From Fistulifera solaris (taxonomy: Eukaryota): DNA of 64,000 nucleotides. The position numbers were made by a program, and so were the translations under genes. The stretch covers positions 62,001 through 126,000 of the forward strand of contig AP026153.1 in the NCBI GenBank assembly GCA_030295235.1, in the 5' to 3' direction. Below, one piece after another: positions 1 to 59,358 of this stretch. The notes beneath the pieces were generated by a model, which saw nothing but the letters and a program-made list of their open reading frames with translations, did not search any database and was not told where the DNA came from. Each line of letters opens with the position of its first letter. Within the stretch, counting starts at the first letter, position 1.

Positions 1-72
1 AAAGTAAGTAACAACACTGTGCTTGTTTCGTTCTCAACTCTATCGGTTTTTATTAACTACTTTTCGATGCAG

Positions 73-3000
73 ATATCTCATTTGCGATCAGGTGGAAGCA
101 CGGCTTGGTGGGCAGTTTCGTTTGAAGCACAATAACGTTTGTGGAAATTTCTTCGCTGACAGTCAAGTCGTGGGCAATCCTGCCATCAACTTGGACGCTT
201 CCAGTGCAGCGACGGTCAAAATTTTCGATCTGAGCAACAAGGCGAAGGTGGTGGATATTCAGTACAATAAGGTGGCTCAGGATCTTCTTCTTACCGTCCC
301 TTTGAGTCAATGCTCTCAAGTTCCTCAAGATGGACACGTGTTCGGCATCTTCGATGGCAAGTACTGGCTCCATGACCCGCGTTTCGTTGTCGACGAGAAC
401 TCTCTGGAGAAACCAAACAACGAAATTTGCTCTTCGGCCCCTCCTACGTTTCTCAACGAAGCATCGTGCGTGATATCCCAAACGGCTCCGTGTGTGACCT
501 CATCAGCACCCTTGAGCGTGTCGTCAACAGTTCAATTGACCATTGCCACGCTGCAACAAGCATACAAGGACACGGGCAAGCTGATGTATGCTGTGAATGG
601 TCTGAGAGGCCCATGGGACCCTCCCTGTAAGGCTGGGACTACTTCTCGTTGGGTGGTGGTCAATGTGGATTGTACCGACACCACCATGAAGGATTCGACT
701 CGTACATTCCTCCAGAATTTACTAGTAGAGGCCAAAACCACGCAAAGCAATCCGTACATGCTGGATGTCTTCATGCCTTTTGCTGGTTGTGACGCGACTG
801 ACGCAAATGGGCTCTACTATAGGATTGCTGCCAACGGCAAATGCTATGAGAACGTTCACCCAAATCATTGGCAGGTTTTTGATTTTACTGCTTGGGCCGC
901 CCAGCATCCTGGTGGGGCTCCAGCTATCGAGCAGTTTGCGCTGAGGGGTGAATTCGTTCTTAACTTTCCGGATTGGCACACTACGGATCGATGGACAACT
1001 TACTCGAAACAGTTGACGAGTATCGGACGTTTTGGTGACACTGTTCCTGCTATCGGAGATCCACAACCCGGTCCTATCGAGGGAGGGGTCTCTCTGGTTT
1101 GTGGAAGTCCGTTCGAAGTCGCAAACAATGCATCCTTGGCCGGTTCGTTGCTAGCAGGTGCTTTCGACATTGTCACTTCTGAGAGCAAAACGACACCGGA
1201 ATCAAGATTGATGGAACAGAATCTGATGATCTGGATGGATGTTGCGTTGAATAGTAAGGACCAACTGAGGCAACGAATTGCGTGGGCATTGAGTCAGATT
1301 CTAGTTGTGGCCCCATACGCCCTTGAGTCGTGGTACACCAACGAAGTGTTTCTGACATACTATGACATCTTTGTAAGGCACGCCTTCGGAAACTATCGCG
1401 ACATCCTCAAAGAAGTGTCTTACTCTCCAGCGATGGCCGAGATGCTGAGCTATCTCAATAGCGAAAGGTAAATGCTAGTTGCCAACTCGTTCTTTTCGCA
1501 TTGACTAAGAACTCACAAACCCTTAGCACCGCAATTGTCTTCGACATAAAGAAGCAACTCCAATTTGCTGATGAAAACTTTTCTCGCGAGTTAATGCAGT
1601 TGTTTAGCGTAGGCCTTTATCAGTTGAATCAAGACGGGTCGCTGCTGTTAAATAGAAACAACCTCCCCGTGCTGACTTATACGAACGATGACATCATGGA
1701 GTATGCTAGGATGTGGACCGGTTTCAAGCAACAGCCTCGTCGAAACAATGTCGAAGATTTCCCCTCGCCTTGGACTGGAAGTCTTGTCGACCCTATGATG
1801 ATTCGAGTCGAAGCAAGAGACAGTTTGCCAAAGGTGAGTTGATGGCTTCTTCTGCTTTTCTTAAAATACGCTTGGCGAAAACTTATTATACTACCTCTTT
1901 CTGTTCAGATGGGTCTGAATCGTGCGTACGTCGGAGATGGATACCCCTTGTGCTCCGACTTGCCAAGCCAGCACTTTTTGAAGCGTGGAGCAACCTACCG
2001 ATTATTGGGGCCAAAGCCCAAGCCCCGTCTTCTGAACGACCCTGATAGTTGGACTGAATCTACAACGACAAAACGTTTCTCTTTAGACACGCGCTCTGGT
2101 CTCTACCAAACCCTCTGTAAAGCATCGGGTGGCACGTGTTCTTATCCTGCAAAGTTGTCTTGCAGTCAAACCTTGCCTGCACTGGTATCGAATGCGAAAT
2201 CGACGAGCCCCGCATCGTGAAAGTAAGCGGTATGTACTACGAGTATGCGCGTTTGCCATGTGTTCAGCAAGCGTACTACAGCAATCCGGCAATGATGACG
2301 AACCAGTGGGGATGGGCATACTGCGCCGATCGACGCACGGCGGCTGGATCCGTTGCCTGCTGCCCCGATAGTAGTGGAAAAGCAAACACTGGTGTGGTGA
2401 AATTTGATGGAGAGAAGCTTACATTCGATAGATCTGTTGCACGTTGCAAAGCGAGCGGTATGAACGCATGTGAAGTTCCATGGTGGGATTGTAACGGGTG
2501 TAACGAGCAACTAGGACACTGGACCACACATTCTTGCAACTTGGCAGTGAAAGTCCACCGTGATGGTAAAATCGGAATCGTGCACGAAGTTATTGACAGT
2601 AGACCAAACGTGGGCAAGGATATCCACTACAACGTTCGAAAAGACACGAAAACTTCATTCCGGGTTGACTGGCAGGGGCCACTGAACACGCTACTGAGTT
2701 CTTACGACACACAATGCGGTGCCATGGGATGCAAATTTGATTCCATGCAGAGCGTTTGCCTTTGTCCTGTATCCAGCGTGGTCGATTCTTCGGTCTTTTC
2801 CAGCGCACCGACAAAGAATCAAGTCCTTTCTCAATTACGCATCGGATCATTTTCTCCGGACATTTTGACAGGATACAGTGCTAAAGATCTTGGCAATGGT
2901 GTTGTGATGTATTCCACAGACGGGTTGATTTCGGCGAAATCTGTCTTTCAGGTGAAAGACGCAAACGGAGTGACGCATTTCCGAAAGAATGTCAAATCGA

Positions 3001-5427
3001 TTGTGACAATCGGGTCGGGGGACTTTCATTCCGTAACCCGCCTCACTTTATTTCTCTTGCGTTCCCTGAACTCCGTGATGCCGTATACGAGACTGAAGCT
3101 GGACTTGACCATTGCTTTGTAAGTGAAAGGGTAGCATGTGCGATGGCTATTTGATTGAAAGACCGCCAGAACTTACATTCCCATCTTTCCATCTTTAGCA
3201 CCATCCGAACACGGCGCCTTTTCTGGCTTCGAGAATGCTGCAACGCTTTGGAATATCTAATCCTTCTCCTCGCATGATCTCAACTGTTGCGACTGCCTTC
3301 CGCACGGGAGTCTACGTTGCAGGTGGAGTGACTCTAGGTAGCAGAAAATACGGCGACATGTTCGCCATGATGGCTGCTATTCTTCTTGATCGCGAGTCTC
3401 GAGCCCCTATTCTCGATGCAGATCCTGCTTCCGGGTCTCTTCAAGAGCCCTTCCTTCGATACGTTCGTGCGATGAGGTCGCTCGAGTTCAAACCTTCTTC
3501 GGATGCACCCTACGTGCGCTTCAAGACATACTTCCCGAACGCCCTTGGACAGCAGCCGCATCTGCAAACAAGTGTGTTCTCGTTCTTCAAACCTGAATAC
3601 TCCCCTGCAGGACCCGTCGGAAATGCTGGTCTTTTTTGTCCAGAATGTCAACTTACTGATGGGCCGAAGGCGATCACATTGATGAACGCATTGAACAGTC
3701 TGTTGAAATATGGATTGAGCTCTGATTACGGTGGATTCGGGCACGGAAGAGGACTCGCGCCAAGCAAGGGTGACTACTCGAACTCCTATGGTAGTTTGAC
3801 GTTAAAACTCAGTGACTCGTTGACGGCGACTCAAGTAGTGGACGAGCTTGCACTGCTACTGACGGCCGGTAGATTGGATGCTCAAAAGCGTGTCTTGATG
3901 GTGAACGTCTTTAACTCGCAGGTTTCGAGAGCGCAAGGCATCATCACGGTCGAGCAAATGATGCTCACCACACCCGAGTTTCATACAAATACGTTATCGC
4001 AAAACAACGCCGGCGCAGTCTCTCCGCCCCCGCTGCCGACACCCAACACCAAGCCGTACAAAGCAGTCATCTATGTGATGCTCTCGGGTGGTGTCGACTC
4101 TTCTCAACATGCTTGTTCCGCAAGTGTGCAGTGGAAGGAACAACGCCGGGGTCACCGTCGATCAACAGTACAATGCGGAGCGTGGAAGTTTGGCCCTCCC
4201 ATCTGGAGACCGATCTTTACAGATTGCTGCAACCGGTCAGCCTTGTTCGACATTCGCTATCCACAAAGAGCTGCCGCTGTTCAAGTCGTTGTACGATGCC
4301 GGCGATTTGACATTTATCGCAAACATGGGAGTTCTGAACGATGTCACGGGTATCGACAAGATGAACTACATCGCCAAGACGCGCATTCAACTGTTTGCTC
4401 ACAACTGGATGCAACAAGAGGCAAAGACGATGGACCCGAAATCGGCTAAACTCGGTACTGGTGTCCTTGGTCGACTGAGCTCAGTGTTGAAAGACAAGGG
4501 ATACACACCGGGTTCTGTTTCGTTTGATAGTGAGTCTATTTCCGTTTCTCCAGAGCGTAACAAAACACCCAAACCGATCGTTGTGAGTCCCTACGGAGTG
4601 AGCAAGTTCGACACCAAGCCGACATCTGAGACGTTTGACTTGACATCGTACGCCAAGCAGTTGAATGCAAAGCCAGGCTCGGTGGATTCGTTGTTCGGCC
4701 AGACTTGGGCTGCGAGATTCCTTGATGGCATGAACGAAGCAGAGTTTTTCAGCAGCAAAATTGATCAGGCTCCCTTGGGAAGTCACTGGACGTGGGACAT
4801 GGGCCACATTGGTTACCAGTTTCGTATGCTTTCCAAGCTTGTGAAAAGTCGTACCGTGAGGGGAGTCGATCGCGATGTGTTCTACACTGAGTATGGCGGC
4901 TGGGATCACCATGCAGGGCAAGTCTCTGGCTTATTGAACAACTTTAGGGAGCTGAATAAGTCGCTGCATTTGTTGGTGACGGAACTGAAACTCCAAGGCG
5001 TGTGGAACGACGTAACTATTGTTATCGCCTCCGAATTTGGGCGAACGCTTACGCCAAACTCAGGTGGAGGATCAGACCATGCTTGGGGAGGACATTATGC
5101 GTTGATGGGAGGCGATGTTAAAGGAGGAAAGATTCTTGGCCAATACCCTACTGATTTGACGGAAAAGGGCATTTGAATGTCGGTCGAGGGCGTTTCATTC
5201 CGACGACAAGTTGGGATGCTGTTTGGAACGGAATCTTGCAGTGGATGGGAATTAGCACGGAGGCAGAACTCGATTACTGCTTGCCGAATCGAAAGGCAAC
5301 TTCCGGTGTAAGCGGCTTCACAAGTCTGATGTGGCGAGGCGATCTCTTCCAATCCACTGGTCGTAAAAGGCATTTGCGCGAGCGACCAACGGAGTCTGAC
5401 CAACAGCAAGAAGAAAGCATGATCTGA
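73..5427 (+). CDS. DUF1800-DUF1501 fusion protein, copy A (5' end outside window; several frameshifts)
   Basis: DUF1800-type motifs DQLRQRIAWALSQI, YYDIFVRHAFGNYRDIL, DENFSRELMQLFSVGL, HPNTAPF..FGISNPSP. DUF1501-type motifs YKAVIYVMLSGGVDS, LFAHN, GGWDHH, SEFGRTL..GGSDHAWGG, GRFIPTTSWD. GT-AG introns at 4-72, 1468-1526, 1834-1908 and 3119-3198. Confidence 0.85.
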
Positions 5428-15242: not shown

Positions 15243-18200
15243 ATGAGTCAACAACACGAAAATGTTGTCGAGGAATTCAAGTTTGTATGGAATCGATTGC
15301 GAGCGAATTTATCGACCGAGGATTCGAAAAAAGTCCTGACAATGACACCGCAACGCAAATCACGATGGTTTGGACGTCAACAGGAGACGACTCCTCCTCC
15401 GACGGCACTGTATGTCACCTTGACACAAATGGAAACAATAGTCGAAGATTTACGACGATTGGCCGAGTTGGTGGTGATGGGTGAAAACGCCGTGACCGCC
15501 GGAGAAAAACAAAAGCCAGTTGAGAAGAATCAAGATATTCCAAAGGACGAGGAAGAAGAGTTAGACTTGACGACGATGTTACAATATCATGCACAATTGT
15601 TCGATTTATTCATTGAAGAACACGTCTTGTCGTACATGGTGGATCTGGTGCTCGGTACTCTCTTTTCTTCTTCCGCTACTGCCAAATTACTACCGCCATT
15701 GCCCGTCGCCACACAAGCCATTCAATCCATTTCCATTCTCATACAAAATGTTTCACAAGTGACCAGTTTGTATTTATTATTATCGAGCGATACGATCAAT
15801 CGGTTGAGTCAAGAGTTGCCCCTCGACGATTATCTTGCCGCCGAGCGGTATCTGCAATTGCAACACCTCGACAGCAGTTTGACTTTTGCTTCACCGGCCT
15901 TGACAGATTTTGCGACGCATTTTGTCACTTTACTGAAGTCACTAGCAATGCGAGTGACACCAGAGACGTTGCAATTCTTTGTACAGTATCCAGCGGAAGA
16001 TCGTCCCGCCTTGCAGTTTCCACTCTACGATCGGGCTCTGGAATTTTGTGCCGCGCATCATGATTCGTTTGTGCGGACAACGGCCCTCAACATTTGTTTG
16101 AATGTCTTGCGTCTGACGACCGTCGACGAACCGGCGCACGAGACGAGTGATCCACCGGCCCTGCCGGTGGGGGTGTTACATACCTCGTATTTGCCCTTCT
16201 CGGATCGTTTGTTGATTGCGCAATATGCCTGTCTGCCGCGACGTGTCGAACCACTGATTGCGCCGATATTTACAAAATTGGCGGAACGGTGGAATGCTTT
16301 GGAGGAACATTTGCGGGAGATACCCCCCGAGTCAAGTGACAGCCATGCCAAAGCGTCCCTGGTGAAACATCAAGTGAAGGTCGATCGGTGGTTGTCGCAG
16401 TGGCGCAATCAAGCGGATCAGTTGCACGATGAATTGCTCTTTCTGCAAGATGTCTTTCAAGTGGGCTTGACGTCTTTGAACGAGCAGTTGATTGAAATGA
16501 TGCTGGCGACTTTTGTGTATCCGTTGCAGCTTCAACCGCTACTCTTGTATTGCAAGTGCGTCGAATCCCCCGACAATACGAATGAATGTGACATACCTTC
16601 CGCACTGTGGGCACCCGCACAAGCGGCCTTGTTTACGATAGCGGCGTGTTTTCATTTCTTGGAACACCCGGCGTTATTGAAATTGTTGTGGGTCGCATTT
16701 TTCCATCCATTAAGTCCGGATTCGACGAGTGTGCCGACGATTCGTGCTCAATTGCAAGTGGAGTCCGTCAATGAAGCAGGAAGGCCCTGTTTGCGAATGG
16801 ATTCGCCTCTCACGGTAAACCTGAATAGCCGAGAAACGTATCCGTTTGGAAGTCGCTTCACGAATGCGGAATTACCGGATGTTTTCCGCCGAGGAGGCGT
16901 GCGTCTTTGTGTTGGCGCCCGCCTTGCAACAAGTGTTGGCATTCCGAGGGGATGATTTGGCCTTGCTCGCTAAAACGAAACCGAATCCTTATCGTCAGGC
17001 TTGGCTGACTTGCTTGCAGCCTAGCACATCGCAATTTAGCATGACGCTGAGGCACTTGGCCATTGGCACTTTGAATGCTGCTGTGCAAGCCTTACCAGTG
17101 AGCTTAGTATCTTCTATTCTTCTGGGAACTGATCTTCAACAATTTCATGACGATATGCCGATCGATGAAAGAGATCTAGATTCAACTGCAGCACATATCG
17201 ACGACCGGGGTCTGGGTAGCAGCAATGTTTACCAATCCAGACATGCATTGACCAAAACGAGAGGAGTGGGTACGGATCATATGGGTGTCGTCGTGTCGCG
17301 ACTGGCGACGAGTGTTGTCTATCAGTCACCAGGACAACAGCAAATTTATGATGCAACCGCAGCTCACGCACTGATATACCTTGTCTATACAAACCCGCAA
17401 GCGTTAAAACTAGCTGCACAGAGCATTGATTCTGTGTGGCGGCATGCGGCGCACGCGTCGTGCCGATCCGCTGCGTTGCTGAGAGATTGCCCTACTCTTC
17501 GTGGAGCTCCGAGTATACAAGACCCGAGATATGATGATAAATTGGCGACGGCTCTCATGGACATGGTGGTGTACGGAACTGGCGACTTTCCCCAATTTCA
17601 GCCGGGTTTGGCTGATTTTCTGATGCAATCTACTAGTGAACCGTATCCATCGTGTACTCTCGCCGTTTGGTCGTGCGGCACTTTTCCGGACCTAATTGAG
17701 CAAATCGGGAAACAGTTTAGAAAGGCAGCTTTCAAGAATGATGAACAGAAGCTACTGGAGGAAAAACGTACAAATCTGCTCTACATTTGGCAACTAGATG
17801 CTTTTGCCTCCTTGTTGAGAGATTTGTCAGCCACACAGGGCGTTGCCTTGCGTTCCGTTTCACAGTTGACAAGTCTTGTGCGCTTGGACGATGGGACATT
17901 TGCAAACAAGGATTTTAGTTCGATTCAACGCAAGCGCCAGGCGTTCGCTACTTTGTCTCCCAAAGCCTTAGACACTCTATTTTGTGAAGATGCAGTGACT
18001 GTCCTACCGGAAATCGGTTCCACTATAGACATTGTTGGCGCTTTGGCTGTTCCGTGCGTTTGTGAAGCGCCACCCAAGTCGGCGTTGCCTATTGCGGAAG
18101 GCGTTTCCTGGCTGTCGCTTTACCTTGTACCTCAAGACAGTAGTTTGCTTTTCGTACAACAGGATATGAAACTGCTGATGGCATGTCCTTTAGAACGAGT

Positions 18201-18566: not shown

Positions 18567-21500
18567 CTAAAATCCATTCGCCATGTAAATTCCGTTTTTT
18601 TCAAGGTGAAGCACTCCGTCAGCCTCAAAGGCGTGCATCATTTCTTGCTTGGCGATTGTGTCGACTTCTTCTGGGAGGAAGCCTGAGCGGCCTTTAGTTT
18701 TCGAATGAAACATATCTTCTTGCTTCAATAAACGATGAAATCCTCCACCGCTTGCTGAGTGCCGATTGGGAAGAAAGTAATCCAAATCAGAGTCTGACGA
18801 TACCCCCATCCACTCGGCAATGCCATTCCAGATTGAATCCCAGCTCAGAGTTGGGATTAATCTACCTCGGCCGACGTTTAAGGGACTGTCTGCGGTAAGA
18901 TCGTTAGGGAATTGACCGAGAATCTGTCCGCCCTGTATATCTCCTCCCATCATTAAATATTGTCCACCCCAGCCGTGATCTGATCCTTTGCCGTTGTTCG
19001 AAGTTACTGTCCTTCCGAAGTCTGAACAAATGATTATCGCAACGTCATCCCATATTCCTTGGTGTTTTAATTCTGTCACTAACAACGACAAACCTTTGTT
19101 CAAATCTCGGAACATCGGTAGGATCTGTCGTTTCATATCCATATGATGATCCCATCCGGCCCATGTGGTCACAAAAAATTCACGGCGTTTCAAACGTTGT
19201 GCATGGGTAGAGAGAAGCTTGGCAATCATTGAGAATTTCTGACCATAATCCGGAAGGAATGACGGCCAGTGCTTTCCCAACTTTGCTTGGTCCAAGTGGG
19301 ACTTGAGGTCTTCGGCCTCTTCTATGCTCTTCAAAAACTGTTGAGACCAAGTCTGGCCGAATAAGGAAATTTCGTACGAATCAGAGATGGCATTGAATTC
19401 CGCTGCGTAGGGTCTCACGTCAAAAAGTTCAGAAGCCGGTTTGCGGCCAAATGTCGTGACCCCATTTCGACTTACTATCATAGGAGCAGGCTTTTCACCA
19501 ATGTTCGGCTCAACTGCTACAACAGACTCGTCGATTGAAATGGAGCTCGACGACAGCCCTGAACGCTCGAGGATCGCGGCTAGACGTCCCAGTAGCCCGG
19601 TCCCCGGTATGACTTTCTTTGGATCCATGGACTGCGTCTCTTTGATCATTCCATTATGAGCGAATAATTGCATAGTCGTTCGTTCTTCAAAGTTCTTACG
19701 AGTCATGTTGACATTTTCTATCATGCCAGCATTTGCGAAAAACACCAAGTCGCCTTCATCGTACAGCTCTTTCAACAAGCTCAGCTCTGGATGCAAAGCG
19801 AATTTGCTGCAAGGTTGCTGTTCCGCGTCAATGATAAGTGTCCTTTCTTCGTCCGTCAAGGCTAAGTCGCCGCGCTCATCGATGTACTGCTTATCAACCG
19901 AAACGCCAGCACTATTGGTTCCACTGCACGCATGAGGGACCAGCATGTTATACGAATCAAACCCACCATCCAGGAAAAGATAAACGACCGCTTTGTAGTC
20001 GCCAATCCCTCTGGTTACTTTCGATTTTGCGGCGGGAAGCTTGGAATTTATACTCTGTGAGATCGCATTTGCGTGAAACTCCGAGGTGGCCACTATAATT
20101 TGCTGAAGGTTCAACAAAGCGGAGTCCGCTGATTTTCGGGTCAATAACGTATCATATATTTCGATCAATCGAGCGCGCTTTTCTGCTAGAACACGACCTG
20201 CAGTAAGTAGTAGGGCGAGCTCATCAACAACATCTTCGGATTTGGAATGGGAGGAGGGCGAATAAGTTAAGCGTCCTCGTGCCAAAGTCGTGTTCCCCAC
20301 ACGACGCAGATCTTCGTCTTTCGATCGTCCATAACCGAACCCTCCAAAAGCAGAATCAAATCCATATTTGACAAGACTTTGAAGGCCATTAGAAAGCGAG
20401 ATGGATTTCGGACCTGTTAGAACGAGACATTCAGGACAGACGAGCGATGCTTCTCCAGCTGGACCTATCGTGGTTTTACGATGAGACGATTTGAACTGAT
20501 TTAAAAACTAGACGCAATAAACAACTTACCAGAAGGAATGTGCTCGGGCAAAAGAAGGAAAAGACATTGGGCAACTTGTGACACTGTTGTCCAATGGAAT
20601 CTTGCATATCCACTCCCAATCGAATGTATGGATCATCGAAATCGGCTTCAAACTCAAGAGACCTCAGTAGACGAACATACTTCAGAAACGGCTCAAGAAG
20701 TGATCCATGTGCAGGGTCATTATCAAGTACAAGCGACCGGCTCTCCCTGTCAAGTAGAATTGCAGCAGTCATTGCCATCAAATCACCATACAAACCGGCA
20801 CCAAAGGCAATCAATCTTCCAGATTCATCGAGCGTTTTATAAACACCTGTTCGAAATGCTTTGCCCACTTCCAATATCAAGCGAGGAGAAGGATTTGAAA
20901 TACCGAATCTTTGGATAAATTTATGCGCCAGGAAAGGCGCTGTGTTTGGGTGATACTGGATACGCACAGTAAATCAATCATGGGAACGTTTGAGGTTTAA
21001 TCAAAGACAACAGTGCAAGAAGGAAAACAAAAAACTTACAAAGTAATGGTCAATCCCTTCATCCATTTCGTCTGCCCCATCGCGTACTTCTGGATAAGCT
21101 ATGGACATAAAGTGAGGGGGATTTCGGAAAGAAACGACGATGGCTTCTCTCCCCACAATGACTTCAGACCGAATATTCTTTCGAAAACAGATTCTCCCAT
21201 TGTCATCAACTACTTCGAAAATTGTTGACTCGTCCAGCTTTTCCGTCTTGGAAAACATTGTGACACCGTTTCCCAAGTCGTATTTCGAGAGATCATTTCG
21301 ACCGTAAGGAGAAAAAGCGCCAATTTTCAGTTCTTCAAGGATTTGATTTCGCGTTGGAGCAATTGAAAAGGCGCGATAGTCCATTACTGTGACGGGACAC
21401 AGACATAGGTTGTCCGACGAATCCCGCTCGCACCCCATGTTGTCGCACCAGTCATCGTAGAACTCCAATACATTCTCGATAGGACCCGACCATTCTACAC

Positions 21501-24500
21501 GAAAGAATGTTTTGCTGTCTTCTCGTACAGGACTGTCGAATAGATTATCAGCGATATCGTCAGCGCGATGGACAAGAGCTACTCTGCCGCTAGCATCAAA
21601 TTTCACCATAGTGCTACATGAGGCGCTTGTCCAATAGTCCAGACGCTGATTGCAGCCATTGCAGACCCAGCTGGGATCCTGACAAAGAAAATGCCGCTCA
21701 GTTGCACAACGGTTTTTCGCCGTCTCTCTTGACACCATTTCTCCACTAAATTCTTCAAATCTAAGATCGGCTTTGCCATCCTCTGAACTACAGCACGCAG
21801 TGCCACCAATCGGCAGCCGAGGATCCCCGCAGAAAAAACGCGCATTTCTCGTTTTCATTAAACTGCCGTCATTGTAAAAGGCCTGGTGTACACAAGGTGG
21901 ACGGGTGTACTCGTAGTACATGCCGGGCCCAACTTCAATTACACGAGGAAGTTCAATGCTGCATTCCTGGCCATCACATATCAAGTCCTCTTCCAAGACC
22001 ACGAGCGTTGAGTACTCGCAGGACTTCCCATCTAGACTATTGCAAAGCTTTGAAAACAAAGGTGACGACCGCGAAAGTACTAGCCTGTTTATGGAATGGT
22101 CTCTGTGCCACTTTGGCGGCTCCTCTAAAAGTCGCGGCTCCGGGTAATTTCCCAGAAATCGATAGGTGGCTCCTTTGTGCAGAAAGTGCTTCTCTGGAAG
22201 GTCTGCGCACAGCGGGACATGGTCACCTACATACGTTTGGTTCAATCCCATCTGTTGATAACGTGACGGTTAGCTCAGACGAAATTCCATTGAAATGCAA
22301 GGACGGCGCGCCACACTTACCTTCGGGAACGCATCCTTCATTCTAGCCTTTATTCTCATCGGATCGATTTGATTCTTATCGTCGTTATCTTCGATATTCC
22401 CTCGTTTTTCCTGGCGACTCAGTCCTGTCCATAAACGCGCCAGTTCGGAGACATCCTCGTTGCTATAAGTCTTGATTGGATTTCCAGCGGCATCCAGTAC
22501 AAGAGAGCCATCAGGATGCAAGTGCTCCAATCCTAAACAAAACAATTGCATTATCTCTCGAGAAAAGTTCTCATTTGCATATTCTACGCGACGGAGTCTT
22601 CTCCACGAAAATGCCGTGGAATGGCCGTTATGGTATGAAAGCATTTCCGCCATTACAGGACTGAAGGAAACTTCCTTCAAAATATTTCTATAGTTTCCGA
22701 ATGCATGGCGCACGAATATGTCATAATAGTGCTACGAAATGGAAGGACAAAAGGTTGTCAGAGGAGGATCATATAGACACCTTGAGCATTCATCAAGACA
22801 GCCGACAATATTTAGTCAGTCAGGAGGGCAACTTACCACAAAAACTTCGGTCTCGAACCAGATCTCTATAGCCGAAGGAGATACAACCAAAATTTGAGAA
22901 AGAATCCAGGCCACTTTTTGGCGCAACTGGTCCTGTGCATTGAGCGCAATGTCTAACCATATGCTAGTCCTCTGCTGCTCAAGATCAAGGGTGGATGTGG
23001 TACGATTTCCTGGTGTTACCGCGTCAAATGCTCCGCGAAACAAAGCGCCTTGTTTGTCATTGGAAATTTCATTCGGACTACCGCAGATCAACGCCGAACC
23101 AACGTTGTCAGCACCATCGTCGCCAAATAGATCTTCAAATGCATCTTGCAACTCGATGGATTCGTGAACGGCAATGGTATCTCCCAATCTACCTAGTTCG
23201 ATGACACCCCTTTCGATGCTTTCGTACCAAAGCGACATTTTATGAGTTTCAGGAAAGGACAAGGTAAAGTTTCCATCCACCGCAAATTGCCGAATTACAG
23301 CATCACCACCTGCATGACGTCCCACATATTCAGTGAAATCGTACACCTGATAATTTGACCGGTGCGTCTGCTTCCAGCACGCTCCATTTTCCGTGCGAAT
23401 GTACAAAAGATCTGAAGCGTCCTGCTCACATTGAAAAGTCATCACGGGGACAACAATATCCCGAAGAAAGGGATGTGAATCCGTGGAAGACTCTAATAAC
23501 TGCCGTAAATAAGCTTTGGTCTTGCTTTCTTTCGCATTAGTTTCGTCACACTCAAATGAATCGGCGAGGACCCATCGAGAATGAGCACCTGGTGAACAGG
23601 ACGCCTTCTCAGAATCTTCGAGTCGCAACCCTGTCATGGAAAACAACAACCGTTCCTTTCCACTGGCGCGATAGACTTTACCGAATATAGATGCATCCAA
23701 ACGAATGCGCTTGCTCGTGGGACGTTCCGCCGCACAATCGGTACCGCTCGTAGACAAGCGACAATTCGCTTCATTCAGAAAATTCGGCAGTGCCGCAACA
23801 CAGAGTGCCCGGTATTGCAGATCGGTCGCATTTTTCGTCATTTGCACAAGATGACTGCCACCGTCTTCCAATGGATGTTCCACCGTATTCTCTTGCAAAA
23901 GAAATCGTCCGTCATGAATGTAGTATTCTCCCTTATACATGCCCACCACAGTTCGCAACGAGTATAAGTCCACTTGTGATAATTGAATGCAAGCATCGGT
24001 ATGTGTAATATTTTGAACGAGCATGAGTTCCTGTGGAGTATGCGTGATACCGATTGTCGTATTCCACCGCCACACCACCGTCCAACGAAACGACGGGTAA
24101 ATCGGTTTGCATTTGCGCATCAAAATAGACAGGAGGGACACCACGAGCTTCACCATTGACATAGACGTGGAGACAGCGGCGTTCAAACACTATTCGAAAA
24201 TCGGAACCAATGCCATTTGTAATGTGTCGACACAATTGATATCTGAGGAACGAAAAACGCCACATTGTGAGAGCGTTTAGAAAAACACGATGGATCTCCA
24301 CTAGCTGACTTACGATCCATCGGGAATGGGAACATGCTCTTCCGTATCAGGATAAAAGACGGTAAAGTCGGTCACGTTCGGAATCAACGTTCGCTTTTGA
24401 CCATGAATTCGTATTAACTTTTGATTGTCCCCCACACTCGAAATTTCCAAAACAGCTTGCCGATCGGCATCCGTCCAAGCGTATTTCCGATATCGCGTGG

Positions 24501-39493: not shown

Positions 39494-39909
39494 GTCACCT
39501 TTTGCATCATTCCAAAGCGATACCTAAGATCCTTATGAGTGTATCTTTCTACTACTATTTTTCGACTTGCTTATTTGTTTGTATGCTCTTAGTACATTAG
39601 ACCTGCTAGAACTGACTAGCAAAGATATTATAGGGAAATCTCAGATTTTCCTTCCATAGCTAGCGCTAGAATCTAGAGATCTAAGCTTGGAACGAAGAGC
39701 GTATCCTCTCGTTTCTCGAGGCCCGTGGACGACCGACAGACAATGTGACGCGTGCCCCGTGATTCGTCCTTCTCCAGTCACTTCTGTATCCTTCGTTCAC
39801 CATAAAAACGGTTGCGTCACGGACTGAATCATGACTCGTTGACACTACAAAATCGTACTGTGCAAAATGCGAACCATGGTATCAGTCATGAGTCGTCATG
39901 AGTCGTCAG

Positions 39910-40651
39910 CAGGCCTCTTTATATCCGTTTTCACCCGAAAACACGGAAATAAGGTATTTTCGGAGACCTGGTAGATTTATTTTCGGTTAAATCCGGATTT
40001 TACGTAGAGCTACGTAGAATATGTACTGACTAACACATTAGCCCTGCTAGACAATCGTTTTGCTAAGTTCACTTCATCCACAACTGTTTACAACAAGCTA
40101 AATAATTATTAGACTAATCAAATTGCTTGCTTTTGTGCCTTAACGTCGCTTACTGCAAGCCACCGAGATGCGTGGCGCTAACTATTGCCAGCTGCAACTT
40201 TATCAATGGAGCACTTGCCATCACGAAAACATTTTGTTTTTGACTTTAATTTAGTTTGTGCGCTTTCATGTCGGAAATTATTTCTTTCGCAGCACCAATG
40301 TCGTCAACTATATTACACAAAGCTTTCGCCGATCATTTATCAACCCCTCAAGAAAGACAACATCTTGATTGTAACAATGATGAGGCTTTTCTAAAATCTC
40401 TATTATCAGTCTGTTCTATGTTTGCATGACCTGGTTGAATATAGTTGCATAGAGCTTCGTATATTGTGTGCTAAAGAACGAACCACCATAGTTTTTACCA
40501 AGATTATGGTACAGGTTCTCATCCGTTACACCCTCTCCCACACTCACTCGCAATACGGAAACACGGAATTAGGTTAAATTCGGGGGTCCTGAAACCTTAA
40601 ATCCGAGTATTTTCGGGATTTTTCGTAAAAACCCGAAAATAAAGTGGCCTG
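39910..40651 (-). mobile_element. hAT-like non-autonomous element E1 (742 bp)
   Basis: TIRs CAGGCCTCTTTAT...ATAAAGTGGCCTG (1 mismatch), 8-bp TSD GTCGTCAG at 39902-39909 and 40652-40659, and subterminal CGGAAA/CCGAAAA repeats. Orientation is inferred from a motif shared with E2. Confidence 0.85.
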
Positions 40652-40666
40652 GTCGTCAGTCGTCAG

Positions 40667-42053
40667 CAGGCCTCTTTATTCTGGTCAAATGACCAAAATA
40701 ATAGCATTTTCGCCAAAATAGTGCTGAAAATATGACCAAAATAAGGTATTTTGGTATTTTGGTCATGCAATTTATTATGATTTCTGCTTAGCAAGTATGT
40801 TGTTTTCTGAGTAGTTGAATTCTATTTACTATGCTTTTTACTGCACCGCGAATGTCTCTGTACGATTGAGTGTTTTGACGCAGTTTTTGCACGCCATACA
40901 TTCGTTTTTTTATTGACCTTTGCCGCCCTTCTTCAATATTCAAAAATAGGAGGGTGATTCACTTGAACACAGCGCAAGTGTTGCTTAAAAGGAACTCCGA
41001 CGGATTGATTTGGAGCAGGGGATTTGAGTGTGGAGGATGTTTGCACGCTTGGGCCTGATTGCTCGGCATTTCCCCGCCTACTGCCATTATGTTTCAATGT
41101 TTGCATTGACATATTGTCTTCCGCCAGGAGGATGGATGTTGGATGTTCCGTAAAAATAAGGAGACAAGGAACGGACGGCTTCTAATGGCTTCATAATACC
41201 GTGGTTGGATGCATATGCCCTCGAAGTTACAACAATGGATGGCGACAAAATCGTCTGGGCGGCATGCAAATTCTGTCTCGAATGTGGACGCGATACGCCG
41301 TCTCCCAAGCCCAAGAACGGATGTCAACAATCTTTTCGCCATCGACGCTTCTTAACATTGGCACAGTAACTAGTTGAAAATTCACGTTGAAAGCCAGAAA
41401 TATACGAGGAGTAAAAGAAAATGACGAAGAAAGAAAAGCGTGCGTTATTTAATGAAAAGATCAAAGCGAAGAAATCTTTTATTGTGAACCGCCGAGCTAG
41501 CAACGTCTGCTTCGAAAGTACACTCCCCTTCAGCTCTTGGAGATTGAAAAGCAGTTTTACGCCTTGCTGACTCGCCGCCGAGAGTCTGCCGCTTTTCCTA
41601 TTCAATGCAGAATGATGCACACGGAGACTTCGCCAGTGACAAGTTCGAGATGTGCTGGCAGAGTGTGGGCCCGGGGTTTGTATTTCTGAAGGATTTTTAT
41701 GGTAGCATTGCAGCGATGATGGCGGGAATTGCATCTGTCGAGTCTGACTTTCCAGAGCAAGCGGATCAGAGGCAGTAATTCCAGTTCGATGACAGACTTT
41801 ACGTTGGAGCCTATGTTGCATTGCAATCCGTATGATGATTTCTTTGAGATGTTTCTGAATTTGGGAGGTTTGCAATGTTCTTTTTAGTGATGTGAATGGG
41901 AAACACCCGTAATATTACGTGATGAGATTTACATGGTACATTTTCTACGTAGTTCTACGTGAAAAGCTAAAATAAACCAAAATAACTTTGAAAATATGAC
42001 CAAAATAACCTATTTTGGTATTTTGGTCACGAAAGCCAAAATAAAGAGGCCTG
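40667..42053 (+). mobile_element. hAT-like deletion-derivative element E2 (1387 bp) with a transposase N-terminal zinc-finger remnant
   Basis: Perfect TIRs CAGGCCTCTTTATT...AATAAAGAGGCCTG and TSD GTCGTCAG at 40659-40666 and 42054-42061. A 41-bp GACCAAAATA block lies at 40725-40765 and 41989-42029. The + frame from 41202 reads WLDAYALEV..WAACKFCLECGRD. Confidence 0.85.
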
Positions 42054-42722
42054 GTCGTCAGGCTTTCCTACGACATAGTACCAAGAGTCAAGAGTACTCC
42101 GGGGTATTAATAATGGTAGGTCCGATCAAATCCGCCATTGTACTAACAATATCAAGCGAATAAGTCCCAATAGCATTCTCCGGGAAATATACTGTACTAC
42201 TAATGTACCGACGAACAAGGAAGAATCCGAAATTACGGAAAATCGCAGAAACTGTCGTCGCGACTCCGCGCCCCCGCAGCTGCTACGAGAATTCTACACG
42301 AATTTCGTACTGGACTTGGCGAGCTCCCCCGAGACCCTGTTTGTACCGGATTCTACGTGCGAGGTACGAGAGGAACTGGCGACGATGATTTTGACGGCAA
42401 ACAACACGAGACGACGGCCACCGCACCGTACAAACTGGGAAAATTTTTATGGAGGAGACCTCGAGCAGCGTTGCATTGCGTTTGCGTCTCCCTTTCTTCT
42501 TCTTGCCGTTTCGTGGTGTTGTTCTCGAGAACTGATTCTCCCGACCAATCAACGAAAATAGAGTCCACGGAGTCATTGAAATTCACTTTCTTGCAAAGTA
42601 TTCAAAATCATTTGTTCATTGGTTTTTACTGGAAAGAAGCAACGAGAGAGAGAGAGCTTGTCTTTGCAGCCAACCAGGATTGTTGTTGTGAAATCCTTTC
42701 ATAACATCTTTCCCATCCTACA

Positions 42723-51655: not shown

Positions 51656-52632
51656 TTTTAATGTATTATGAAAGGAGTTGCGATGCGTTGATTATCTTCT
51701 TGATTTGAAGAAAATAATAAGAAATGAAAATATCCTGAGAAGAAAAGCTTTTCGTTTCGTCGACAATTTTTGCAACGCTTGTTCGCTCGTCTATGCAGGA
51801 TTTTTTTGGCCCAGGCAACAACGACGCCATAATTCTACGATTAGTACTAACGACGTATTCGCTTTTGTCACGTAATGTCATAGAAATTGAGCGATCCGAA
51901 ATCGATGTCAGGGTGACTCCGAACAAAGTAGTAGCTGACATCAAGCTTCTCTTCCTCACGTTCTCTAAGATACTTATCAAAGTATACACAGAGATGAGCA
52001 TAAATCATAAATCATCTTTCTTTCCGTGTTATAAATTTAATCCAGGCTCAAAAAGAATTGCCCCTCGCAGATGAAAGAAAACTTCAAGACATCACCGAGC
52101 GAGTCTCTGTTTAAAAGTAGCTTTCGTTGAGAACATAAACTACACTTAGACTTTACGTTCAATACAATATACAATTCATTGTGGTTAATTTTTTAATTCC
52201 GGAACTTTAACCCTGACATGTTGAAATGTTGAACATCATAGATTTCTGTTGACTTAGTGTAGCTTTTTCCAGAGACAGAGATTTAACAAGTACTCGTTGG
52301 CGAATGACGAATGACGAACGACGAACGTCCAAATTTCGCTGGCTTCCTCGGTATGAAAAAGTACAAGCTGTGACACGCGAAAACCATACACAGTACACAG
52401 TTCATTCAGAGTGAGTCACGAATGATGAGATTTGGAATTTGGAATCCTGCGCAGCAAAATGTCCGCTAATTTTCGCAAACAGAGCAACGAAGATGGAATG
52501 AAAATGATGTATACCTGGTAAGCCTTACAAGTAAGGGAAGCCAAGCACATCCTGTTCATGTGTTTGCTTTACCAACCAGGTCTCATTAACATTACAAATA
52601 ATCAATACTTTTTTGATTAAAAAGGAAATGCG

Positions 52633-58455: not shown

Positions 58456-59358
58456 TGTTTGATAGGCGCTTTTGAAAGAGGGACGGGATGTGAATTAGTA
58501 ATATTATTATTTGTGACAAGCAACTGGTTTCAAAAGAACGACGCGGAAAAGTAGTGGTAGAGGTCTAATGTCTAATGAGCTGGTGGTCTTGAGAAAAGAG
58601 CGGACATTGAACTATAATTCTCCGCACCGTCTCACAGCCGCTTCTTTGATGTCTTCCTTTATGTACAATGAAGGAATTTGGGCTTATTGGGTATTGGGTA
58701 CATTGTACATTTTGTTTTTGTTTCTTGTCTCTTGTCTCTTGTCTTCTAACGATAGTCATCAATGTAGTACAAAAATTGGATACTTTTTAATTTTGAATTT
58801 TGAATCCGCTTAAACAGCCACGCATACGAACAAAAAGAAGTCAATTGAATCATCGTCGGCAAGACTATCGTACCTGGTACTGTATTAGGTATTAGATATT
58901 AGGTCTAAACCCGCAGAGCGCAAAGAATCCAATGAACGATCTAGGTCTACAGCAAACGGAAAATGAAGCGAGTTAGAAGTTAGAAGTTAGTTAGAAGCTT
59001 GGTCCTTGATGCGTGTCATGAAAATAAACGGAATTATCTGACGTTCCTCATTCAACCTTCGACCAATTTGTCACTCTGCATAACGAAACATGATGATTGC
59101 GAAGGAGTGGCCCGCATCAAATTAGTCTTGATTGGAAGGATGGGATGATCTGCTCAAACAGAACTGCTCCTAATCTATGATTTTATAGCAAAAACTCCAA
59201 ACGATCCTCCACCACGAGGCACTCGGCGGCGAGAATATTATACGATAATCAGGCGAAAAAGTGTAGAACGTAGCCAAAGCTGACTATATGTTTTATGTCG
59301 GAACCGCTAGCATTAAATTTCGTGTTTTGGGTCATGTACAAGTAAGTTGCTTCTGTTC

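Follow-up and report, generated by a model that had tools for sequence, protein, structure and literature searches.

Two transposable elements, here called E1 and E2, lie side by side in a stretch of 64,000 nucleotides (nt) from Fistulifera solaris (contig AP026153.1, positions 62,001 to 126,000), which we refer to as the window and whose own numbering is used throughout. They occupy the interval between a TB2/DP1 gene, which ends at ~39493, and the next frames, which start at ~42079, and their location is therefore intergenic. Direct reading of positions 39700-42300 gives the order GTCGTCAG, E1, a 15-mer, E2 and again GTCGTCAG, with the following features:

39902-39909, no strand: GTCGTCAG, copy of the 8-bp target-site duplication (TSD) left of E1, from sequence and motif search
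39910-40651, minus strand: E1, a 742-bp non-autonomous hAT-type element, from sequence, BLAST and end alignment
39910-39922 and 40639-40651: the termini of E1
40652-40666, no strand: GTCGTCAGTCGTCAG, the 15-nt spacer, serving E1 as its right-hand TSD and E2 as its left-hand TSD
40667-42053, plus strand: E2, a hAT derivative of 1387 bp with internal deletion, from sequence, motif search and end alignment
40667-40679 and 42041-42053: the termini of E2
42054-42061, no strand: GTCGTCAG, TSD copy right of E2, from sequence and motif search

Perfect 8-bp direct repeats are present on both sides of E1 and on both sides of E2. The layout described in an earlier note on this DNA, in which one 8-mer stands before, between and after the two elements, is borne out by direct reading, with a middle spacer that is neither 8 nor 16 but 15 nt long; it consists of two GTCGTCAG 8-mers overlapping by one G and is scored by Tandem Repeats Finder (TRF) as a 7-bp unit in 2.1 copies. 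On the plus strand of the window GTCGTCAG is found only at these four flanking places, and on the minus strand it occurs once, at 16113, where there is no insertion. Both outer junctions are confirmed by contigs of run X1, the run that covers the largest share of the stretch (74% of its sampled words): record 2 links left-flank DNA to E1, and record 5 links the terminal 15 nt of E2 to right-flank DNA. Run X3 and most of run X2 cover small parts of the stretch only. An allele without E1, E2 or both appears in none of the contigs aligned to the window, which are too short for this to count either way.

All four ends of E1 and E2 carry CAGGCC[T/A]CTTTAT, with A at the right terminus of E1 and T at the other three, in agreement with the common 13-bp terminal inverted repeat (TIR) claimed earlier. 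The 13-nt terminus (CAGGCCWCTTTAT) has exactly four occurrences in the 64 kb, all at E1 or E2 ends, while shuffled sequences held a mean of 0.11 matches and reached five matches in 0 of 100 trials. Subterminal repeats accompany these termini. The motif of E1 is CCGAAAA(T/C)A, i.e., CCGAAAA/TTTTCGG, and that of E2 is (A)CCAAAATA, also written (G)ACCAAAATA, i.e., CCAAAATA/TATTTTGG; both are concentrated within the terminal ~130 bp. The two motifs are distinct, as the earlier note had it, yet they are variants of each other that differ by one base. A terminus match with one mismatch (CAGGCCACTTTTT) lies at 22907-22919 within an open frame of 457 amino acids (aa); neither a partner terminus nor subterminal motifs were found nearby, and it is therefore probably due to chance.

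When E1 and E2 were compared by BLAST, similarity was confined to their ends, where the left ~117 bp of E1 match the reverse complement of the right ~117 bp of E2 with 71% identity (E = 9e-10), and in an alignment of six ends the left end of E1 and the right end of E2 are collinear over ~140 nt with a common block, ACGTAGnnCTACGTAGAA. This inverted match indicates that the two elements are related and oppositely oriented. E2 is in the plus orientation with its 3' end at the right, and the left end of E1 is a 3'-type end; therefore, E1 is inverted relative to E2, and the 5' ends of the two face each other. By these sequence comparisons, the two non-autonomous elements represent two related subfamilies in opposite orientation, probably sister groups within one hAT lineage. 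The head-to-head arrangement proposed before is thus upheld, and so is the view that the pair is not a tandem duplication, since the interiors differ by BLAST, in which the common part is limited to the ends.

The suspicion that the elements are hAT-like proved correct: E1 and E2 are hAT-type elements by their 8-bp TSDs, their subterminal repeats and the remnants in E2 of a transposase that belongs to a family with the Hermes fold. No Pfam family was matched by the stop-free frames of E1 and E2, the longest frames included, and an intact transposase frame is missing from the elements, which hold decayed remnants only, all of them in E2:

41635-41863, plus strand: decayed transposase C-terminus including a ...VESDF... 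motif, with stops and frame changes, from tblastn
41187-41366, plus strand: possible N-terminal zinc-finger remnant, from tblastn (residues 19-75 of P0045, E = 4.8)

The queries in these tblastn searches of the window were seven relatives of the transposase found at a metagenome locus, L024, described below. The C-terminal remnant was matched by residues 689-765 of P0063 (E = 3.6e-6), by residues 614-681 of P0001 (E = 5.4e-5) and by P0010 (E = 2.2e-5). The N-terminal match, collinear with the C-terminal remnant, is weak and insignificant alone. E1 was matched by none of the seven relatives and contains no coding remnant.

Locus L024 (the same sequence as L030) has a terminus with the identical 13 nt, and its end is 81% identical to the right end of E2 over 54 nt. 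The opposite strand carries, just inward of this end, a 509-aa frame interrupted by a single in-frame stop (2971-2973). Among 8000 candidates scored, this frame has 273 relatives at E <= 0.001, of ~700 aa, which include proteins from the diatom Fragilaria crotonensis, the chytrid Batrachochytrium salamandrivorans and Marchantia, and one of which is named "HAT C-terminal di..." by UniRef. The relatives P0001-P0120 carry the precomputed Pfam accessions PF27073/PF27046; a Pfam-A copy without these two families gave no match to the L024 frames at E up to 10, nor to five full-length relatives at E up to 1. A phmmer search of the PDB with the single L024 protein returned nothing. A profile built from 34 family members had Hermes as its top three PDB matches (E = 0.03-0.055), in an alignment that spans the CxxH, TRW-S and C-terminal E..FS motifs. 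In the family alignment (A1), no variation is seen at C330 and H333, and hardly any at D234, D300, W329 and E650. Further, when the AlphaFold model of P0001 (predicted local distance difference test score, pLDDT, 84.2) was submitted to Foldseek, the best matches were Hermes chains in 11 of 11 cases (E = 8e-10 to 3e-7), with target template-modelling (TM) scores of 0.51-0.62 over more than 520 aligned columns. The Hermes fold was accordingly found in proteins of the relatives, while the window holds remnants and no intact gene. As for the autonomous transposase that the earlier note wished to see located, a related frame of the ~700-aa type was found at L024, with its one stop; the window contains the decayed remnants in E2. 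In the L024 element (2001-4034), a relative of autonomous type, the transposase frame directly adjoins a 463-aa frame that has a CCHC knuckle and resembles a retroelement gag.

These features agree with those of the hAT superfamily (Hermes, hobo, Ac/Ds) and its non-autonomous derivatives in the 8-bp TSD, the short TIRs and the many short subterminal repeats, in a transposase of the relatives with the Hermes fold and C-terminal E..FS motif, in a target (GTCGTCAG) that fits the pattern nTnnnnAn, and in the presence of deletion derivatives and copies resembling miniature inverted-repeat transposable elements. By contrast, the transposase of this lineage (~700 aa; diatoms, chytrid, liverwort) is weakly Hermes-like in sequence (E = 0.03), and the locus has two subfamilies with a common terminus and subterminal motifs one base apart.

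Related ends elsewhere have other flanks. An E2-type right end in a contig of run X2 (77 nt aligned with 10 differences, 87% identical) is flanked by GTATCGAG. A metagenome scan for the terminus followed by N{8,24} and CSAAAAYA yielded 45 loci, among which the credible relatives amount to two distinct sequences, L024=L030, flanked by ATCATGCC, and L013=L021, flanked by CTCGCAAT. The loci L016 and L025 are doubtful as relatives, and the remaining ones match by chance, for the most part within bacterial genes rich in GC (L005, for example, lies within an 894-aa frame). No second terminus was found within 2 kb at any of the scan loci, and none of them is a complete relative with both TSD copies; viral contigs scanned with the terminus pattern and the transposase profile gave nothing. 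Altogether, the five lineage insertions examined have four different flanks, rather than a single target shared by most copies. Three of these four flanks (GTCGTCAG, GTATCGAG and CTCGCAAT) fit nTnnnnAn and ATCATGCC does not, a number too small to prove a preference. This is the target pattern given for Hermes in two papers (PMC2803484; PMC10368747), the former of which also describes particular 8-bp sites that are used repeatedly within the nTnnnnAn preference. The varied flanks of the related ends and the empty GTCGTCAG at 16113 therefore leave strict specificity for GTCGTCAG unsupported, contrary to the earlier proposal of a possible family specific for this 8-mer.

We consider it probable that the two defective hAT elements lie at an insertion hot spot situated on a short tandem repeat, and that the locus reflects ordinary hAT target preference without recognition of GTCGTCAG. 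According to this explanation, the intergenic site would first have held 15 nt, namely GTCGTCA twice followed by G, which would offer GTCGTCAG in two registers overlapping by one base. One element may then have entered each register, in opposite orientation and each with the usual 8-bp duplication, which would give T-E1-(T+T[2..8])-E2-T, where T is GTCGTCAG. A second insertion into the TSD of the first element would leave 8 nt between them; therefore, the 15-mer probably predates both insertions. The site would be a local hot spot fitting nTnnnnAn, at which the tandem duplication presented the preferred 8-mer twice, and the TSDs would be identical largely because the 7-bp tandem duplication of the target offers the same 8-mer twice. 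Two independent insertions into the same 8-mer, as first suggested, are kept as the simplest reading. A likeness exists to the hot spots of Hermes and hobo, for which reuse of particular 8-bp sites within nTnnnnAn is reported (PMC2803484), with the difference that reuse here would follow from one natural locus. With regard to the source of the 15-mer itself, the excision footprint of an earlier hAT occupant and ordinary slippage seem about equally probable.

Several points weigh against this explanation. The lineage insertions examined number five, three of which are from other organisms. The joint of E1, the 15-mer and E2 is crossed by none of the listed X1 contigs, and is therefore known from the assembly of the window alone. 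Random insertions 7 bp apart would be very unlikely, and the explanation therefore leans on the assumed strength of the hot spot. Finally, the X2 contig runs from the family end into GTATCGAG followed by TATCGAG, i.e., again a TSD plus TSD[2..8], and then into unrelated DNA; the chance odds of these seven extra matches are ~6e-5, and such an improbable coincidence speaks for the duplication and the transposon being causally connected.

This link is the core of the strongest alternative, a self-renewing landing pad as the earlier note had also proposed, to which we give appreciably less credence than to the hot spot on a pre-existing repeat, although it deserves serious consideration. Here, an earlier element would have been excised from GTCGTCAG and would have left the 15-mer as its footprint (two TSDs minus one base), after which both 8-mers were reused; repeated cycles of insertion and excision at one 8-mer would build 7-bp arrays. 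In hAT excision the flank is nicked one base in. The spacer equals T+T[2..8], and loss of 1 nt at the G/G microhomology yields exactly the 15-mer, with the X2 contig as a second independent case. Sites of hAT excision are described as hairpinned flanks rejoined with short deletions, P-nucleotides and microhomology (PMC5499845; PMC3499496; PMC5873905), a mode of repair that suits the 15-mer. Footprints of Ac/Ds likewise keep both TSD copies, with P-nucleotides or a small deletion where they join, often at microhomology (PMC5873905); the 15-mer of this locus, by contrast, could equally be a slippage duplication.

The frequency of short tandem duplications in the window also bears on this alternative. 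Exact repeats in the 64 kb were counted and compared with the mean of 20 shuffles:

Period 5: 52 loci, shuffle mean 42
Period 6: 24 loci, shuffle mean 12.9
Period 7: 24 loci, shuffle mean 3.2
Period 8: 8 loci, shuffle mean 1.25
Period 9: 1 locus, shuffle mean 0.05
Period 10: 2 loci, shuffle mean 0.05

The excess peaks at period 7, where duplications are 7.5 times over-represented, with period 8 also raised and a smaller excess at periods 5, 6, 9 and 10, a profile that speaks for a landing pad. On the other hand, 7-bp duplications are frequent in this DNA in any case, which suits a target duplication older than both insertions. Long open frames cover 64% of the window, and 20 of the 24 period-7 loci lie outside them; clusters occur at 51999-52445 and 58563-58990. 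Two short duplications lie close by, no more than some tens of bases from the insertion site, which also accords with a landing pad:

39885-39908, plus strand: 10-bp tandem repeat GTCATGAGTC, 2.4 copies by TRF, in the left flank and overlapping the left TSD copy
42082-42095, no strand: 7-bp tandem duplication CAAGAGT, 2 copies, 21 nt past the right TSD

The 10-bp duplication was also considered as a P-nucleotide footprint, since a palindromic addition of 2 nt would fit in one of its registers; this reading was dropped because such a fit is within chance given ten registers and several models.

Against a landing pad, no fewer than three insertions into the one 8-mer would be required, and an element occupies only 1 of the 24 period-7 loci, namely the E1/E2 site. 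In addition, several period-7 arrays have 3-4 units, some of them variant, and these arrays and the full 10-bp duplication look like the product of slippage, as a single footprint would give neither; moreover, nTnnnnAn is fitted by just 2 of the 6 exact 15-nt loci. A more general version seems rather unlikely to us: the lineage would keep returning to the same 8-mers, each cycle leaving TSD+TSD[2..8] and so adding a 7-bp unit, so that the lineage, or hAT elements of this host in general, would cause the intergenic 7-bp excess, and E1/E2 would be a pad with both registers filled. If such reuse of footprints were systematic, cut-and-paste elements would create their own hot spots and seed short tandem repeats in regulatory DNA.

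Compared with the landing pad, recognition of GTCGTCAG itself by the transposase as its target would account directly for the four perfect 8-mer copies beside two unlike elements, but we regard it as very improbable. The 87%-identical E2-type end in X2 and the two metagenome relatives have other flanks (GTATCGAG, CTCGCAAT and ATCATGCC), and the copy at 16113 is empty. Contigs in Logan stop at the first 30-mer that is shared (k = 31). The X1 flank contig of record 2 enters E1 for 28 nt and then stops; if the rule on shared 30-mers applies to it, the other identical E1 ends in X1 would share at most 2 flank bases, which argues, indirectly, against a common target.

A composite origin is comparably improbable, whether E1, the spacer and E2 form one (macro)transposon or arose in a single aberrant event (reversed-ends or sister-chromatid transposition, for example). 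In its favour, the left end of E1 and the right end of E2, i.e., the outer ends, are homologous in inverted orientation along ~117 bp, and the inner ends point towards each other with 15 bp between them, resembling the end-to-end joint of episomal hAT elements (PMC2803484). Nevertheless, the copy numbers of the two elements in X1 are far apart: contig depth is 37.6 in the interior of E1 (one 524-nt contig with 1 mismatch) and 6.8 in that of E2, against 9.6 in the left flank and 7.9 in the right flank. E1 is a near-identical multicopy family, whereas the E2 of the window is single-copy. The unequal depths therefore rule out an obligate composite; the constant association of E1 and E2, which the earlier note had named as evidence against independent insertions, is not borne out by these depths. 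Further, the inner spacer is made of the 8-mer that also forms the outer TSD, while an incoming unit would bring foreign spacer DNA; therefore, the arrangement was formed in place and not carried in. Both outer ends are also of the 3' type.

That an E1 allele and an E2 allele of the same site were stitched together during assembly is hardly credible, since stitching should leave either 8 nt between the elements or a break, and not the clean 15-mer; X1 confirms the two outer junctions, and two insertions at one 8-mer would still be needed. In favour of stitching, the source was taken to be a metagenome, strain variants are visible in X1 and the middle joint is uncrossed by the listed contigs.

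Returning to two insertions at a hot spot on a tandem repeat, the locus offers a natural example of two elements that share one target duplication. Probably the nearest precedent is the double P element at singed (sn-weak), reportedly with two defective elements in inverted orientation in one 8-bp target, separated by an 8-bp spacer. It belongs to another superfamily, and its spacer of 8 bp differs from the 15 bp found here. The term "singed-weak" was not found in a literature search, and a P-element review did not mention it. The locus also documents an apparently active diatom hAT lineage, represented by a near-identical multicopy 742-bp element together with a deletion derivative. Run X1 contains, in addition, a shorter and diverged E2-like element (corresponding to window positions 41172-41969) at a depth of 25.7, with joints 41306>41402 and 41439>41773, such that it is without 41307-41401 and 41440-41772 of E2.

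Compared with the window, the X1 contigs of the flanks lack 10 nt at 42094, within the CAAGAGT duplication, and have an extra CTA at 39548; the flanking intergenic DNA therefore varies between strains. The host is a raphid pennate diatom. The long open frames of the window encode eukaryotic domains (DHHC, UCH, TB2/DP1 and arginyl-tRNA synthetase, ArgRS), and the ArgRS piece is 90% identical to the ArgRS of Fistulifera solaris and 70-80% identical to those of other diatoms. Elsewhere in the window, two groups of frames carrying DUF1800 and DUF1501 domains, families known mainly from bacteria, lie on opposite strands at 8-5176 and 18567-24189, each adjoining a frame with a weak cytochrome-b5-like match.

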